Positions 4,645 to 40,147 of a stretch of 64,000 bases of DNA are shown here, in pieces; position 1 is the first letter of the stretch; each line of letters starts with the position of its first letter. Location: NCBI GenBank assembly GCA_001782805.1, contig MFPT01000019.1, positions 1,801-65,800 of the forward strand, in the 5' to 3' direction. The notes under the pieces were generated by a model that did not search any database, was not told the origin of the DNA, and saw nothing but the letters and a program-made list of their open reading frames with translations. A program made the position numbers and the translations under genes. The stretch is from Candidatus Magasanikbacteria bacterium RIFCSPHIGHO2_01_FULL_41_23. GTDB taxonomy: Bacteria; Patescibacteriota; Patescibacteriia; Magasanikbacterales; UBA922.

Positions 4645-4713
4645 AATTTTGTTCGTTACATTTTTAAGCAAACTTTGTTTTTTTAAGTTGTAAAAACTCC
4701 CTTTCCTAAGACT

Positions 4714-4830
4714 TAAGCAAACTTCGCGAGATCTTTTTCTCGACCACTCGACCCTTCGACAAGCTCAGGGTAAACAGGCTCGGGCATCGAGAAAAAAATC
4801 ATCGCTCCAGTTTGCTTCAAAGATTAATTG
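4714..4830. repeat. Intergenic copy of GC-rich short repeat (core 4752-4775 CCCTTCGACAAGCTCAGGGTAAAC) flanked by imperfect ~30-bp inverted repeats
   Basis: The core matches copies at 8757-8782, 35222-35244, 18423-18447 (reverse complement) and the variant at 34203-34243. Flanking arms AAGCAAACT...TCTTTTTCTCGA / TCGAGAAAAAAA...AGTTTGCTT. Confidence 0.8.
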
Positions 4831-4856
4831 GATGTTGGACTGTTGTATTGGGGGGA

Positions 4857-5010
4857 ATTTCAGTAGTAGATAATTTTGTTTTCAGTAATGTGCATGAGCT
4901 TTCTTACCACTTACTTGGTTAGAGTAGATGAGATGTCAATAAGGATAGAGACTAGGAGAGTATGAGAATAGCGAGTTTTACTGAAAAGAAAATTATCTAC
5001 TACTGAAATT
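4857..5010. repeat. ~150-bp palindromic element (33-bp inverted-repeat arms AATTTCAGTAGTAGATAATTTTGTTTTCAGTAA / TTACTGAAAAGAAAATTATCTACTACTGAAATT), homologous to the element at 29871-30020
   Basis: Arms are reverse complements with 1 mismatch. Internal right-end motif GCGAGTTTTACTGAAAA is shared with the second copy. Confidence 0.85.
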
Positions 5011-8241: not shown

Positions 8242-11133
8242 ATGAATAAATATAATCCCCAAGAAATTGAATTAAAATGGCAAAAATTTTGGGAAGAAAA
8301 TAAAACGTTTGCGGTTACTGAAGATTCGACCAAAGAAAAATTTTACGGCCTGATTGAGTTTCCGTATCCGAGTGGCGCGGGTTTGCATGTGGGGCATCCG
8401 CGGTCGTACACGGCCATGGACGTGATTACGCGGCAAAAACGCATGGAAGGCAAAAATGTTTTGTTCCCGATTGGGTTTGATTCATTTGGTTTGCCGACGG
8501 AAAATTTTGCCATTAAAACCGGTCGGCCGCCTGCGGAAATTACGGCTGAAAATATTACCACGTTTACGCGTCAGCTCAAGTCGCTGGGTTTTGGATTTGA
8601 CTGGAATCGCGCGGTGACCACGAGCGAGCCGGAATATTACAAATGGACGCAGTGGATTTTTTTGCAATTGTATAAACATGGTTTGGCGTACAAAGCGAAC
8701 CAGCCAATCAATTGGTGTCCGAAAGATAAAATTGGTTTGGCGAATGAAGAAGTAGTGACCCATTCGACAAGCTCAGGGCAAGTCAGTTGTTGCGAACGGT
8801 GCGGCAGCACAGTAGAAAAACGGAACAAAGAACAATGGATGCTGGCGATTACCAAATACGCGGACAAATTGTTGGAAGGCCTGAATGAAGTGGATTATAT
8901 TTCGCGCGCCAAAGTGCAACAAGAAAATTGGATTGGAAAAAGTGAGGGCGCGGAAATTAATTTTGCCTTGAATGTTCCGAGACAAGATTTAGGGAAACAT
9001 AGTGTAACGGTTTTTACCACGCGACCCGATACTATTTTTGGCGCGTCGTTTTTGGCAATTTCAGCCGAGCTGGCGCAAAAATGGATAGATGTAGGCTGGC
9101 AGGCGAGTGAGGAGGTAAAAAAATACATTGTGGAAACTTTGCAGGGTCGGACGACCGCGGTGGCGCGCGAAGATATTGAGAAAACCGGTGTTGACTCGGG
9201 AATTATCGCAATCAATCCGGTCAATAATGAATCAATTCCTGTTTGGATTGTGAATTATGTGTTGGGTGATGTGGGCACTGGTGCAATTATGGCTGTGCCG
9301 GCGCACGATGAACGAGACTTTGAGTTTGCACAGAAATATAATTTGCCAACAAAAGAAGTGGTAATCAAACAATTAGGCGAGAGAGTGGATGGTAGTGAAG
9401 TTAGAAATACTGCGCGGGGGATTTGTGTTCGAGATGGGAAATTATTAATAACCCGCAATAAGAAAATGGGTGAATATCTTTTGGTAGGTGGAGGAATTGA
9501 TAATAAAGAAAGTCCAACCGGTGCATTATTGAGGGAAATAAAAGAAGAAACTGGTTATTGTAATATAAAAATTTCTTCATATCTTGGCACTGTTGAACAT
9601 AATTATTTTCATACCCAACATAAAAAAAATTTACATGCGTTGGTGGCGGGCTTCGTATTTGAATTAGAAAATGAAGAAACAGTACCCCGCGTTGAAAATG
9701 AAATTCAAAAAGCTAATATTCTGTGGTTGCCGGTTGCCGAAGCGATTGAAAAATTTGAAAATAGTCCGTCATTTTGTCGGGAAGTTGAATTTATTGAACG
9801 CTATTTGCAAAAAAAAGGCCTGCCGTTTACTGAAAATGGTGTGGCGTATAATTCTGATTTCTTAAATGAACTGCCGACTCCCGAAGCCAAAGAAAAAATG
9901 ATTCAATGGCTTGAAGAAAAAAGAGTCGGCAAACGTAAAAAAAATTACAAACTCCGCGACTGGGTTTTTTCGCGCCAGCGATATTGGGGCGAACCGATTC
10001 CATTGGTTTTTTGTGAGAATTGTAAAGGTTGGATCCCGCTTCCTGAAGATCAGCTTCCTTTAAAGCTACCACACGTTGAAAAATATTTGCCGACGGACAC
10101 GGGCGAATCACCGCTCGCGCCAATGACGGATTGGGTAAATACGACTTGTCCGCAGTGTGGCGGTCCAGCGCGGCGGGAAACTGATACAATGCCGAATTGG
10201 GCTGGATCAAGTTGGTATTGGTTACGCTATTGTGATCCGCATAATGTTGAGCAATTGGCGTCAAAAGAAAAGTTAAATTATTGGCAACCAGTGGATTGGT
10301 ACAACGGCGGCATGGAGCACACGGTTTTGCATTTGTTGTATTCGCGTTTTTGGAATCAATTTTTGTACGACATTGGCGTGGTGCCCACGCGCGAGCCGTA
10401 CAAAAAACGGACGAGTCACGGTATGATTTTGGCGAGTGATGGTCAAAAAATGAGTAAAAGTTTGGGCAATGTGGTGAATCCAGATGAAATGGTCGAGCAG
10501 TTCGGTGCCGACGCCCTGCGCGTATACATTTTATTTATGGGGCCGTTTGACCAGGCCGTGGCGTGGGATACAAATGGACTTGTTGGTGTGCGGAGATTTT
10601 TGGAAAGAGTGTGGAATTTGCAGGAAAAAATTTACGATAACATCCCAGCAATTGTCGGGCAAATAACAGATAACAAAATTCAGACTGTTTTGCATCAAAC
10701 CATTAAGAAGATTACTGAGGATATTGCCGCGATGCGATTCAATACTGCAATTGCGAAATTGATGGAGTTGAGTAATGAAATGGGTACGCGGGAAAAAATT
10801 GCGCGCGAAGATTATCATATATTTATAAAATTACTCGCTCCATTCGCGCCGCATATTACCGAGGAATTGTGGAATCTATTTGGCACCGGCGATTCAGTCG
10901 CATATGCGCCGTGGCCACAATATGATTCTGAATTAATCATAGAAGCCGAAATAATCATTGTAGTACAAGTCAACGGTAAAGTCCGCGATCAATTGACTGT
11001 CTCGCCGGAAATTAGTGAAGAAGAAATAAAACAAATGGCGTTGTCGTCCGAGAAAGTGATGAAGTGGTTAGAAGGGAAAGAGCCGAAGAAGGTGATTTAT
11101 GTTAAGGGAAAGTTGGTGAGTGTGGTGGTATAA
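8242..11133 (+). CDS. leuS: Leucyl-tRNA synthetase with embedded Nudix hydrolase domain and a short in-frame repeat insertion
   Basis: HVGHPRSY (HIGH), Zn motif CCERCGS, editing-domain motifs TTRPDTIFGA and AHDERDFEFAQKY, KMSKS. A perfect Nudix box GGGIDNKESPTGALLREIKEETGY lies at 9487-9558, inside a ~150-aa insert. The THSTSSGQVS insert is encoded by the repeat core at 8757-8782. Confidence 0.9.
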   Translation: MNKYNPQEIELKWQKFWEENKTFAVTEDSTKEKFYGLIEFPYPSGAGLHVGHPRSYTAMDVITRQKRMEGKNVLFPIGFDSFGLPTENFAIKTGRPPAEITAENITTFTRQLKSLGFGFDWNRAVTTSEPEYYKWTQWIFLQLYKHGLAYKANQPINWCPKDKIGLANEEVVTHSTSSGQVSCCERCGSTVEKRNKEQWMLAITKYADKLLEGLNEVDYISRAKVQQENWIGKSEGAEINFALNVPRQDLGKHSVTVFTTRPDTIFGASFLAISAELAQKWIDVGWQASEEVKKYIVETLQGRTTAVAREDIEKTGVDSGIIAINPVNNESIPVWIVNYVLGDVGTGAIMAVPAHDERDFEFAQKYNLPTKEVVIKQLGERVDGSEVRNTARGICVRDGKLLITRNKKMGEYLLVGGGIDNKESPTGALLREIKEETGYCNIKISSYLGTVEHNYFHTQHKKNLHALVAGFVFELENEETVPRVENEIQKANILWLPVAEAIEKFENSPSFCREVEFIERYLQKKGLPFTENGVAYNSDFLNELPTPEAKEKMIQWLEEKRVGKRKKNYKLRDWVFSRQRYWGEPIPLVFCENCKGWIPLPEDQLPLKLPHVEKYLPTDTGESPLAPMTDWVNTTCPQCGGPARRETDTMPNWAGSSWYWLRYCDPHNVEQLASKEKLNYWQPVDWYNGGMEHTVLHLLYSRFWNQFLYDIGVVPTREPYKKRTSHGMILASDGQKMSKSLGNVVNPDEMVEQFGADALRVYILFMGPFDQAVAWDTNGLVGVRRFLERVWNLQEKIYDNIPAIVGQITDNKIQTVLHQTIKKITEDIAAMRFNTAIAKLMELSNEMGTREKIAREDYHIFIKLLAPFAPHITEELWNLFGTGDSVAYAPWPQYDSELIIEAEIIIVVQVNGKVRDQLTVSPEISEEEIKQMALSSEKVMKWLEGKEPKKVIYVKGKLVSVVV

Positions 11134-18891: not shown

Positions 18892-19638
18892 TTGCCTATG
18901 CTGATTTTTTCCGGTTTGTTTTTTTTCATTCTTGGATCAATCACTGCTTCAGCACTCTTAACTTGGTTTTGGCGAGCAAAACAGGGAAAAAAATGGACTG
19001 TAGGTAGATCACTTTGTGATTACTGCTCCGCGCGTTTGCCATTAGTTTCCCTAATTCCAATTTTGGGAAAATTATTAATTCCTCGTTGTCCTCACTGTAA
19101 AAATTTCGGACCATGGTATTCATTTGTCGCAGAACTTTCTGTAGGCTTTGCTTGGGTTTTGGTTTGGTATTATTCATTAGTTTCAAACAATTGGGTAACT
19201 CTCGCGCTTCAATTGATTATAGTAACGGCTTTAATTATTGTCACCGTTTTTGATTTTTATTGGCAAGAAATTCCTTTTTATCTATTGGTTATTTTGCTTA
19301 TTTTCACGCTTATTTTTATTTTATTAAATCCGGATTCGGATATATCATTGGCATCACGTTTGGTGGGAGCAGTGGCCAGTGCGGGTTTTTTTGCCTGGCA
19401 ATATGTTTTATCGCGCGGTCGCTGGATTGGTAGCGCGGATATTTGGCTTGGCGCGTTTTTGGGTTTTTTATTTGGCTGGAATACGATTGTATTGGTCTTG
19501 GCTGCTGGTTATGGCTTGGCGGCAGTCGGATCAATTATTCAACTTTTTATGATGCGCTCAAAAATTCCTCGGACTATTCCTTTGGGAGGTTTTTTGTCGT
19601 TATCCGGTTTAATTTTTTTTCTCAATAAAATAATATGA
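18892..19638 (+). CDS. pilD: Prepilin leader peptidase / N-methyltransferase (A24 family)
   Basis: N-terminal CxxC...CxxC zinc motif, multi-TM, a DFYWQEIP-like aspartate motif. Genomic context. Confidence 0.75.
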   Translation: MPMLIFSGLFFFILGSITASALLTWFWRAKQGKKWTVGRSLCDYCSARLPLVSLIPILGKLLIPRCPHCKNFGPWYSFVAELSVGFAWVLVWYYSLVSNNWVTLALQLIIVTALIIVTVFDFYWQEIPFYLLVILLIFTLIFILLNPDSDISLASRLVGAVASAGFFAWQYVLSRGRWIGSADIWLGAFLGFLFGWNTIVLVLAAGYGLAAVGSIIQLFMMRSKIPRTIPLGGFLSLSGLIFFLNKII

Positions 19639-36969: not shown

Positions 36970-39900
36970 ATGAATACATTAAACCAATCGCAAAAAGAGG
37001 CCATTGAATACATTTCCAACCCTCTCCTCATCGTCGCCGGCGCGGGCACGGGAAAAACAACGGTGATCACGGAAAAAATCGCACATCTTATTTCTTTCGG
37101 CTTGGCAAAACCCGAGGAAATTTTGGCGCTGACGTTTACGGATAAAGCCGCGAACGAATTACTGGAACGCGTGGATGCGCGTTTGGAATTGGGCTATGTG
37201 GATCTGCAAGTTTCCACATTTCATAAATTTTGCGAACGACTACTCCAAGAATACGCGCTGGACATTGGATTGCCACGCCAATTTAAATTAATTACGGAAA
37301 CTGATGCCTGGCTTTTATTGCGTGATAAAATATATGAACTTGGTTTGGGTTATTATCGTCCGCTTGGCAATCCGGTCAAATATATTTCTGATTTATTGCG
37401 TCATTTTTCCAAATGTAAAGATGAGTTAATTACTCCTGCGGATTATTTGGCGCACGCGGAAAGTGTGGCGCATGAAACAGGCAGTGAAACTGGAGATGAA
37501 AAATCGCGTTTGACTGAACTCGCGAACGCGTATCACGCGTATAATCAATTGATTTTACAAGCCAGTGGATTGGATTTTGGTGATTTGATTTTTTATAGCG
37601 TGCAATTATTGCGCACGCGTCCGGAAATTTTGCAGAAAGTTAATAAGCAATATAAATATATTTTGGTGGATGAATTTCAAGATGTGAATTGGGCGCAATA
37701 TCAATTGGTGAAAGAACTCGCACGCGGTGGCCAGCTAACAGTGGTTGGTGACGACGATCAATCAATTTACGCGTTTCGCGGCGCCAGTGTTTCCAATATC
37801 TTGCGTTTTAAAGATGATTATCCCACGGCCAAAAGCATTGTGTTGAATGCCAATTATCGCTCGCGTCTGGAAATTTTGGATGTCGCGTATAGGTTAATTC
37901 AAAATAATAATCCGGATCGGTTGGAAGTAAAATTAGGTTTGGATAAAAAATTAATCGCGTCCGCGGAGTTTGGTGTTTTGCAAAAAAATCAAACAGTTGT
38001 AACTTATTTGAAAGCGGAGACAATAGACGCGGAAGTGCGTGGCGTAATTCAAGAAATTATCAGCTTAAAACAAAATAATCCGGACACGGTTTGGGATGAT
38101 TTCGCGATTTTGGCGCGCGCGAATAATCATCTGGATCCGTTTATTCGCGGACTGGAAGTGGCGGGAATTTCGTATGAATTTTTATCCGCGGCCGGGCTAT
38201 ATCGTCAACCGATTGTGTTGGACGCGTTTAGTTTTTTTAAAATTGTGCATCAAACGCAAGAAAATTCCGCGTTATTTAGATTGTTGAATTTACCATGTTT
38301 GAATTTTGATCCGCATGACACGCAAAAATTACTGGCCGTGGCCAAGAAAAAAAGTTTGTCGTATTTTGAAGCTTTGGCTCTGGCGCCGCAATGGGGATTG
38401 ACTTCTGATGGAATAAAGATTTGCGCAAAATTGCATGGATTATTATCTGCGGCCGTTGGTAAAAGCAATACGGATAAACCATCAAATCTCCTTTACTCTT
38501 TTTTGGAAGAATCAGGTTATTTGCAATTTTTAGCACATAAAGAAAATGAGGGTGATCGGACGATTATTCGCCAAATTTATCAGCTTCAACAATTTTTGGA
38601 AACAGTGACGCGATTTGAAGAAACTGTTCCCGATCCGCACGTTGCTCATTTTGTGGAATATCTGAATACGATCTTGGAATCAGGCGATGAAGGAGGATTG
38701 TATCAACCGACTGATACGCCGGATTCGGTGAATGTTTTGAGCGCGCATGGCGCCAAAGGTTTGGAATTTAAATATGTGTTTGTGGTCAACATGGTGGAAG
38801 AACGATTTCCGACGCGTCGTCGTGGAACTGGTTTGGAAATTCCCGAAGAACTTATTCATGAACATGTGCCCGAAGGAGATTATCATCTGGAAGAAGAAAG
38901 ACGTTTGTTTTATGTAGCGACTACGCGCGCCAAAGAGCGTTTATATTTTTCCAGCGCGGAAAATTATGGTGGCGTGCGCGCTAAAAAAGTGTCGCGATTT
39001 TTGGTGGAAGCGGGCGTTGTGGAAGAAACTCCTAAAAAAGAAAAACCTGTCGTGAGTTTGTCTCGCAGTGAGCTTGTCGAATTGTCGAGCCAATCAGAAC
39101 CGAAAAAATCAGTTACTGATTTTGCCCCGCCAATTATGAGGCCGGCAAAAGAAAATCCCGTAGTTTACGAATTACCCAAAGCCTTTTCTTTTTCCCAAAT
39201 AAAATCATACCAAACCTGTCCGTACCAATATAAGTTGGCGCATATTTTAAAATTACCCACGAAGAGCTCGTTTAATTTTAGTTTTGGCCAAAGTATGCAT
39301 GCGACTTTGCAAGATTTTTATACCAAAGTGCAGACGATGAATCGCGCTAAACAAGAATCTTTATTTTCCCTGCCATTGGTCTCGGCCGCAATCATGTCGG
39401 CTGACAGCGTAAAAGTACCAACACTCGCGGAATTATATAAAATGTATGACGCGCATTGGATTCCGGATTGGTATGAAAATAAAAAACAACGCGCGGAATA
39501 TTATGCCAAAGGAAAAGATATTTTGAAAAAGTTTTACGCGGCCGAAGATGGACGCTGGACAATTCCCGTATCCTTGGAAGGCTGGTTTAAAATTAAAGTG
39601 GGAAATTATTTGGTGCATGGTCGCATTGATCGCGTGGATCAAGCTTCCGATGGAACGCTCCATATTATTGATTACAAAACCGGCCAAGCAAAAGAAACAC
39701 TGACGACCGAAGACAAAGAACAATTATTGATTTACCAAATCGCGGCCGAAACTTTACCTGAATATCGCCAGATTGGTAAAACTGGACAGCTGACTTTTTA
39801 TTATTTAAATGATATTTTGAAAACCTCTTTTCTCGGTGATCCGGAAGATTTGGAAAAAATAAAAGGAAAAATAACTGCGACAATTGACCAAATTTATGCG

Positions 39901-39981
39901 GGAAATTTTACGGCCACACCGAGTCAGTTTATTTGCAAACATTGTGATTTTCGGGATATTTGCGAATTTAGAGTTGGGTAA
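36970..39981 (+). CDS. UvrD/PcrA-type SF1 helicase fused to C-terminal PD-(D/E)xK nuclease with Cas4/AddB-like Cys cluster
   Basis: Walker A AGAGTGKTT, DEFQDVN, helicase motifs. C-terminal nuclease motif HGRIDRVDQ...IIDYKTG, and Cys residues at SYQTCPY ... CKHCDFRDIC. The ORF-track start at 36910 is probably extended. Confidence 0.8.
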   Translation: MNTLNQSQKEAIEYISNPLLIVAGAGTGKTTVITEKIAHLISFGLAKPEEILALTFTDKAANELLERVDARLELGYVDLQVSTFHKFCERLLQEYALDIGLPRQFKLITETDAWLLLRDKIYELGLGYYRPLGNPVKYISDLLRHFSKCKDELITPADYLAHAESVAHETGSETGDEKSRLTELANAYHAYNQLILQASGLDFGDLIFYSVQLLRTRPEILQKVNKQYKYILVDEFQDVNWAQYQLVKELARGGQLTVVGDDDQSIYAFRGASVSNILRFKDDYPTAKSIVLNANYRSRLEILDVAYRLIQNNNPDRLEVKLGLDKKLIASAEFGVLQKNQTVVTYLKAETIDAEVRGVIQEIISLKQNNPDTVWDDFAILARANNHLDPFIRGLEVAGISYEFLSAAGLYRQPIVLDAFSFFKIVHQTQENSALFRLLNLPCLNFDPHDTQKLLAVAKKKSLSYFEALALAPQWGLTSDGIKICAKLHGLLSAAVGKSNTDKPSNLLYSFLEESGYLQFLAHKENEGDRTIIRQIYQLQQFLETVTRFEETVPDPHVAHFVEYLNTILESGDEGGLYQPTDTPDSVNVLSAHGAKGLEFKYVFVVNMVEERFPTRRRGTGLEIPEELIHEHVPEGDYHLEEERRLFYVATTRAKERLYFSSAENYGGVRAKKVSRFLVEAGVVEETPKKEKPVVSLSRSELVELSSQSEPKKSVTDFAPPIMRPAKENPVVYELPKAFSFSQIKSYQTCPYQYKLAHILKLPTKSSFNFSFGQSMHATLQDFYTKVQTMNRAKQESLFSLPLVSAAIMSADSVKVPTLAELYKMYDAHWIPDWYENKKQRAEYYAKGKDILKKFYAAEDGRWTIPVSLEGWFKIKVGNYLVHGRIDRVDQASDGTLHIIDYKTGQAKETLTTEDKEQLLIYQIAAETLPEYRQIGKTGQLTFYYLNDILKTSFLGDPEDLEKIKGKITATIDQIYAGNFTATPSQFICKHCDFRDICEFRVG

Positions 39982-40130
39982 AATTTTAAATATATAAAAA
40001 TATCTCGCACCAAAACTCGTCCGTCCTTCAGTCTGGTTTGCGAATATAGCACTTATTATCCTTAGCTGGCTCATACTGAAGGCGGACTCAAACATTGGTG
40101 CTCTATATTTTTATATATTTAAAATTTTAC
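39981..40130. repeat. ~150-bp palindromic intergenic element (24-bp perfect AT-only arms AAAATTTTAAATATATAAAAATAT plus nested inner palindrome GTCCGTCCTTCAGT/ACTGAAGGCGGAC)
   Basis: Read directly. The arms flank the helicase stop codon and reach to ~18 nt before the next gene. Confidence 0.85.
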
Positions 40131-40147
40131 AAAATTAAATAAAAAAT

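Follow-up and report, generated by a model that had tools for sequence, protein, structure and literature searches.

Described palindromic repeats and structured RNAs

The described systems that come closest to the three elements reported here, which we call A, B and C, are the MITEs and the REPINs. MITEs (Correia/CREE of Neisseria, QMITE of Coxiella, Nezha) are non-coding and about 150 bp in length, and their AT-rich arms form long terminal inverted repeats; they lie at AT-rich intergenic sites near genes, occur in both orientations and have transcripts that form one stable hairpin (PMC10969869, PMC2649163, PMC2229807), AT-rich intergenic targets and stable transcript hairpins being typical of them (PMC10969869). 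REPINs (RAYT, IS200/IS605-like Y1) are lineage-restricted, vertically inherited extragenic hairpins in which compensatory changes are frequent; no target-site duplication is expected for them, and a folded single-stranded intermediate has been proposed (PMC3116915). The elements reported here resemble both groups in the respects just named. REPINs are known mainly from Proteobacteria and cyanobacteria and not from CPR bacteria, and a full-text literature search returned no description of small palindromic mobile repeats in reduced CPR genomes.

Two kinds of structured RNA also invite comparison. K-turns (box C/D, U4 snRNA, ribosomal Kt-7) combine tandem sheared G.A pairs with a 3-nt bulge opposite no nucleotides. 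In the stem-loop tigRNAs of TIGR systems variable palindromic stems flank a small conserved motif, as they do here; tigRNA hairpins occur in CPR bacteria and may carry an extended hairpin in the loop (PMC12045711; bioRxiv 10.64898/2026.09.09.750476).

The explanation that we favor, with somewhat more confidence than doubt, is that A, B and C are lineage-specific, non-autonomous palindromic insertion elements of about 150 bp, of the MITE/REPIN/Correia kind. The three elements are homologous and share one architecture, B and C are insertions relative to the genomes of relatives, and both orientations occur.

Two homologous hairpins between housekeeping genes

We refer to the whole stretch of DNA that was analyzed, 64 kb in length, as the window. 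Through an exact match of AtpD it is assigned to contig MFPY01000009.1 of GCA_001782895.1, a MAG of Candidatus Magasanikbacteria from groundwater at Rifle. Two of the elements had been recognized in it by the first-pass annotation.

4856..5010, + strand: element A, a 155-nt hairpin in the infB-trxA spacer
4856-4888 (left) and 4978-5010 (right), + strand: arms of element A, 33 nt, 97% complementary, with 89 nt between them
4889-4898, + strand: 5' junction of element A, TGTGCATGAG, followed by the interior (4899-4971) and the 3' junction CGAGTT (4972-4977)
29868..30023, + strand: element B, a 156-nt hairpin in the atpG-atpD spacer
29868-29903 (left) and 29988-30023 (right), + strand: arms of element B, 36 nt, 94% complementary, with 84 nt between them
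29905-29912 and 29982-29987, + strand: junctions of element B, TGTTTGAG and CGAGTT

Element A lies between the genes for IF-2 and thioredoxin and element B between those for the gamma and beta subunits of ATP synthase, the flanking genes being those that the annotation had named. The left arm of B overlaps the atpG stop codon TAA (29870-29872). The inverted repeats of A were located as had been claimed, with a true start at 4856 in place of 4857, one position off. The paralogue that had been given as 29871-30020 is the segment of B homologous to A, and the full arms of B reach 29868 and 30023.

The difference between the arms of A and B that had been quoted earlier, CAGTAGTAGATA versus TAGTATTATGTA, is correct. 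Over the 33 homologous nucleotides, the arms differ at five positions per side. Four of these five differences are paired and exactly compensated (C-G to T-A, G-C to T-A, G-C to T-A and A-T to G-C), and four exact double changes would be expected by chance with a probability of about 7e-6 under independence. The fifth difference on either side has no compensation. The internal box GCGAGTTTTACTGAAAA, described as shared, is exactly identical in both copies and has no further exact match in the 64-kb window.

Both elements fold far better than shuffled sequence, with z values of -8.5 to -11.4 for RNA and -5.7 to -9.8 for DNA, and as single-stranded DNA they are stable on both strands. GC content is 14-21% in the arms and 39-51% in the interiors, against 41% for the window.

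A third copy in the opposite orientation

A window-wide inverted-repeat search yielded four long hairpins in the whole 64 kb, three of which are A, B and a further family member, C (39978-40130), that the earlier reader had missed.

39978..40130, - strand (family orientation): element C, a 153-nt hairpin
39978-40013 and 40095-40130: arms of element C, 36 nt, with 81 nt between them
40087-40094 and 40014-40019, - strand: junctions of element C, TGTTTGAG and CGAGTT
40131..40147 (to 40149 as 19 nt), + strand: AT-rich tail after element C, up to the start codon of the downstream methyltransferase gene

Element C overlaps the stop codon TAA (39979-39981) of a UvrD/PD-(D/E)XK helicase gene. Its arm sequence bears no relation to that of A or B, and its outer stem contains an AGA/GAG purine-purine internal loop. 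Its minus strand has the motifs of A and B in equivalent places of the structure, with TGTTTGAG directly after the 5' arm and CGAGTT directly before the 3' arm. Element C is thereby antisense to both flanking genes, and the family orientation is independent of gene direction: A and B are on the plus strand and C on the minus strand.

The tail that follows C weakly resembles the left arm of C (11 of 500 shuffles score as high). Since relatives have only the stop codon, 1 nt and the start codon here, the tail may have come with the insertion of C. As a general property, a right flank that is a direct copy of the left arm was rejected, the similarity being non-significant for A and B and marginal for C.

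The first-pass annotation had called for a covariance model, and such a model served as an independent test of the relationship of C to the other two. A model made from A and B only, with their sequences unmodified (R2, leave-one-out for C), recovers the minus strand of C at 44.2 bits; the plus strand of C scores 10.7 bits, the reverse strands of A and B score 33-35 bits, and every other hairpin scores at most 19 bits. For another model (R1) one extra C was inserted into a loop of the element C sequence for alignment register. Covariance model scores were 111.5 bits for A on the plus strand and 27.7 on the minus strand, and 130 bits for B on the plus strand. The three-sequence covariance model found no further copies in the 64-kb window or in 72 kb of relatives' DNA.

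Shared architecture and covariation

Comparison of the three copies in a structure-aware register shows a single plan: an AT-rich outer stem (32-36 bp), an asymmetric junction with TGT(N1-3)TGAG on its 5' side and CGAGTT on its 3' side, a GC-richer inner stem and a tip of about 40 nt that is variable among copies. In the inner stem, two runs of pairs, the first of four and the second of at least four, are separated by a conserved bulged A of the 3' strand. In this register the 5' loop of the junction reads (C)TGT-N1-3-T and its 3' side TT. The termini are weakly conserved (AATTTYA), and the best-conserved part is the internal junction.

With a consensus structure derived from the same three sequences, pairing is found in 91% of cells and both sides change in 16 of 30 pairs; when the 3' partner is moved by 1-3 columns as a shifted-register control, at most four pairs change on both sides. 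The first-pass annotation had read the covariation of the two arms as the signature of selection on structure. The covariation itself is real, and it extends to the inner stem and to the third copy. As a discriminator between the options it fails, because REPINs show compensatory change routinely (PMC3116915), so that such change does not separate RNA from mobile DNA.

Several features of the fold depend on the strand. The family orientation has ten G.U pairs. Seven of these lie in the interior of A and allow it to pair on the family strand; on the other strand it barely folds. The RNA folding energy of A and B is 8-10 kcal/mol better on the family strand. The outer-stem mismatches, read in the family orientation, are all purine-purine: G.G in A, A.A in B and AGA/GAG in C. 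The G.U pairs and purine-purine mismatches are hints of a strand-specific fold, either of RNA or of one DNA strand.

These strand preferences, together with covariation in both stems, a covariance model that is strongly strand-specific and conservation that is centered on an internal loop and not on the termini, are points in favor of a structured RNA family, be it a cis-acting mRNA element or a small RNA. We consider this reading unlikely, although it carries real weight. It would treat the K-turn-like junction and the inner stem with its bulged A as a putative protein-binding site, and the outer stem as a clamp that is free to covary. A cis role in mRNA cannot hold for all three copies, because C is antisense to both flanking genes, and no promoter-like site was found at C. 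Close relatives are without the elements at the same sites. The covariation comes from three sequences of one genome, and relatedness alone can inflate it. Searches of Rfam at gathering thresholds gave no match for the elements, and those with relaxed E-values turned up nothing but miRNA precursors, generic long hairpins that scored 25-28 bits where the thresholds are 74-249.

The likeness to K-turns itself is partial. The 5'-UGAG-3' strand opposite 5'-CGAG-3' allows the pairs U.G, G.A, A.G and G-C, so that tandem G.A pairs could form in each of the three elements, and inspection of the register places them beside an asymmetric loop and a canonical stem, as in a K-turn. The junction departs from the standard K-turn by inspection, since its loop has 5-7 nt opposite 2-3 nt and a non-Watson-Crick pair adjoins the bulge. 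Likenesses to hammerhead, attC, ssoA and Rep-nonanucleotide sequences that were noticed by eye were set aside, being unsupported by Rfam or by motif position.

Empty sites in relatives

Comparison with relatives, together with the two orientations of the copies, lends the strongest new support to the preferred explanation, insertion of palindromic mobile DNA. Element B is missing at the orthologous atpG-atpD site in the relatives L147, L148 and L007 (AtpG identity 93%, 88% and 75%). The spacer is free of a hairpin and measures 23 nt in L148 and 9 nt in L007, and in L147 the stop codon is followed directly by what forms the right flank of B in the window. In L147 and L148 the empty site is GGAATAA|TATTAATAC, and the filled site is GAATAA[TTTTAG...CTAAAA]TTATTTAATAC; B therefore starts at the stop codon, between the A and the T of an AT-rich near-palindrome. 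A check for a target-site duplication had been proposed in the first-pass annotation. Comparison of filled and empty sites at B revealed no direct repeat of 2 bp or more, and in this respect B departs from a classical MITE. The flanks of B and C are mutually complementary and not repeated.

Element C is likewise missing at the orthologous site in L154 and L155, where a stop codon, 1 nt and a start codon follow one another (AATAA T ATG). The spacer in the window is 166 nt, and C, too, abuts a stop codon TAA. The infB-trxA spacer measures 407 nt in the window. In L150 it is 60 nt long, and in L152, where it contains a small hairpin unrelated to A, 188 nt. The exact target of A is undefined because its flanks are too diverged from those of relatives. 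Identical copies are present in strain-level contigs, for example A in L149, and no presence/absence polymorphism within the species was seen among the sampled strains.

At the exact atpG-atpD position, L006 (91%) and L009 (72%) carry other long hairpins, unrelated to B, so that this junction seems to attract or tolerate hairpin insertions. The L006 hairpin is a repeat (arms TGTCATTCTGGCGAAAGCCAGAATCCAG, 10985-11062) with a second copy 8 kb away at 18981-19065, and the L009 hairpin, at about 2210-2290, has TACGAAT-rich arms.

The same two relatives could be taken to suggest that the position tolerates or favors hairpins as such, and all three elements lie in co-directional gene pairs after stop codons. 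On this basis one might regard A, B and C as long terminator or RNA-processing hairpins that are needed by their operons and evolve in place with fast sequence turnover, which we think quite improbable. Motifs shared at unrelated loci imply copying between loci and not evolution in place; one copy, C, is inverted, and the atpG-atpD spacer of L147, L148 and L007 does without a hairpin. The terminators of relatives are ordinary ones, GC-rich and flanked by A and T tracts; neither a consensus terminator nor a convincing promoter was found in the three element regions. The short GC-rich stem-loop and U tract of an intrinsic terminator are absent from the elements, whose lower stem is 14-21% GC. 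The suggestion in the first-pass annotation that they could be long bidirectional terminators is accordingly not supported, both for want of a consensus terminator and in view of the AT-rich lower stem.

The remainder of the infB-trxA spacer in the window (4645-4855) contains a second hairpin of about 100 nt, at approximately 4714-4818, that is unrelated to A, and, upstream of A, the sequence TTAAGCAAACTT twice in direct orientation (about 4664 and 4712). This hairpin and repeat may represent another insertion beside A.

Probable classification as mobile elements

A MITE family was among the options that had been proposed from the sequence alone. The part of this proposal that concerns mobility stands, in view of the empty sites of B and C and the two orientations; the part that concerns the classical MITE definition does not, because there is no target-site duplication and the internal junction, not the termini, is best conserved. 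In size and arms the elements do conform to MITEs (length 145-156 bp; arms 32-36 nt long and 92-97% complementary), and there are three copies in 64 kb, with B and C absent in relatives. Neither A nor B contains an ORF of at least 60 aa, and the only such ORF that overlaps C (39805-40095, - strand) runs antisense through the helicase gene. Unlike MITEs, however, the elements lack a target-site duplication at B, the one site with a well-defined empty allele, their termini are weakly conserved, they have no similarity to described families, and no cognate IS or transposase was found within the 64-kb window.

REPINs are matched in another set of features, the hairpin with frequent compensatory changes foremost among them (four double changes between A and B; 16 of 30 pairs across the three copies). 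The arms, on the other hand, are not REP-type palindromes and include no conserved REP head sequence: folded alone they reach 0 to -2.6 kcal/mol, a range in which shuffled sequence does as well. A strict assignment to REPINs was rejected on the ground that the arms are not themselves palindromic. Only three copies are seen here, and the 64-kb window has no RAYT gene. More generally, Pfam searches of the ORFs of the 64-kb window identified no transposase, integrase, reverse transcriptase or Nop/Tas gene, and the ORFs of at least 100 aa are either housekeeping genes or without a family match.

Against the classification as mobile DNA we count the small number of known copies (three, with none in 72 kb of relatives), the missing target-site duplication, the lack of a transposase, integrase or reverse transcriptase in the 64-kb window, the uniform presence of the elements in the sampled strains of the species, conservation that is internal and not terminal, arms that are not palindromic and the hints of strand specificity. 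Most simply, the family is a new family of an already known kind of element. Its only unusual features are the tandem-GA junction with the bulged-A stem and insertion next to stop codons without target duplication.

If the elements are mobile, they may spread, or may have spread in the past, via a folded single-stranded or cruciform intermediate, and the conserved junction could be recognized by a trans-acting protein encoded elsewhere in the genome. Either selection on the fold or the way in which the elements are copied would keep the arms complementary, and differences between copies would then show as compensated pairs. As the elements lie within co-directional operons, they are presumably co-transcribed as hairpins with a duplex of at least 33 bp, and such transcript hairpins could serve as RNase III targets or as mRNA-stabilizing barriers.

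A bolder version gives the junction a larger role, as the recognition site of an undescribed hairpin-specific machinery of CPR bacteria, acting in transposition or RNA binding, which would make the elements a new class of structured element and not ordinary MITEs. We give this only a small chance of being correct. One possibility under it is that folded single-stranded hairpins are inserted at stop-proximal, AT-rich sites without target duplication; the other is that a protein uses the dispersed hairpins as snoRNA-like or K-turn-like modules.

The combination of variable stems with a small conserved junction might further suggest dispersed guide-RNA-like units, related to the stem-loop tigRNAs of TIGR or to box C/D-like RNAs of CPR bacteria, a relationship that we judge highly improbable. 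The copies here are single and dispersed and form no tandem array, there is no adjacent tas and no Nop/Tas gene among the window ORFs, and the region beside the junction is base-paired with covariation, in contrast to the dual unpaired spacers of 8-12 nt associated with box C and box D. The published 14-nt interval from box D over N9 to box C (TG/CG, N9, CCA/CGA/CTA/CAA) was searched for in the elements and gives no consistent pair at equivalent positions. A TIGR stem-loop array proper was rejected, as the tandem array, the adjacent Nop-domain tas and the box D/box C dual spacers are all missing.

Returning to insertion of palindromic mobile DNA as the most probable explanation, its truth would mean that a small palindromic mobile repeat is documented in a Candidate Phyla Radiation genome, that of an uncultured groundwater bacterium. 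It would also provide a clean case of 'covariation' without the need for a functional RNA, and thus a caution for RNA scans that rely on compensatory changes. Where the genes had been tightly coupled (stop, 1 nt, start, or a spacer of 9-23 nt), the insertions left 166-202 nt between them, with a duplex of at least 33 bp in that space. An effect on processing or translational coupling is probable for the atp operon and for other housekeeping operons. Among the features of the family, only the conserved junction could point to something new.

Searches of wider collections

We also searched larger sequence collections with patterns derived from the elements. The general motif pair gave at least 120 matches in viral contigs; there is no outer stem among the matches listed, and we therefore regard them as chance. 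A 20-base general pattern gave 13 chance matches in viral contigs. A pattern based on the core of B and C gave 13 chance matches in JGI metagenomes, where a rough hand estimate predicts about 14. A pattern specific to A and B gave four chance matches in GTDB genomes and returned neither A nor B. The source genome was itself missing from the results of these collection scans, which makes their negative outcome weak. Only AT-rich chance matches, or none, came from BLAST searches of phage and plasmid sequences.

Other features of the window

The ATP synthase operon that carries element B has a second peculiarity. A 539-aa ORF (27271-28890, + strand) between atpA and atpG has no match in Pfam, NCBIfam or PDB sequences, and an insertion of an ORF at this place is unusual for an F-type ATPase operon. 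In L006 the same place is occupied by a 230-aa ORF (9282-9974) with no Pfam match. As a partner protein of the elements the 539-aa ORF was discarded, as it has no family match and A and C are without such a neighbor.

The fourth long hairpin of the window is a perfect 47-bp palindrome (786-832; 23-nt arms, 1-nt loop, 19% GC) that sits just upstream of a methyltransferase gene (847-1752). The leucyl-tRNA synthetase (8242-11133, + strand) has, next to its editing domain, a NUDIX domain (aa 389-504), and the enzyme of a relative, 1107 aa in length, has no NUDIX match. Inside the UvrD/PD-(D/E)XK helicase gene, positions 38863-38962 (+ strand) give a sub-threshold match to Rfam n00280 (42.5 bits against a gathering threshold of 65.2), which probably reflects conserved coding sequence.

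Finally, coding strand and GC skew switch in the region 57385-60000 (- strand). Its ORFs encode an S24 (LexA-like) peptidase, a Y-family polymerase (IMS) that is short or split, and a Bro-N domain, and the region may be an SOS-type or prophage-derived cassette.
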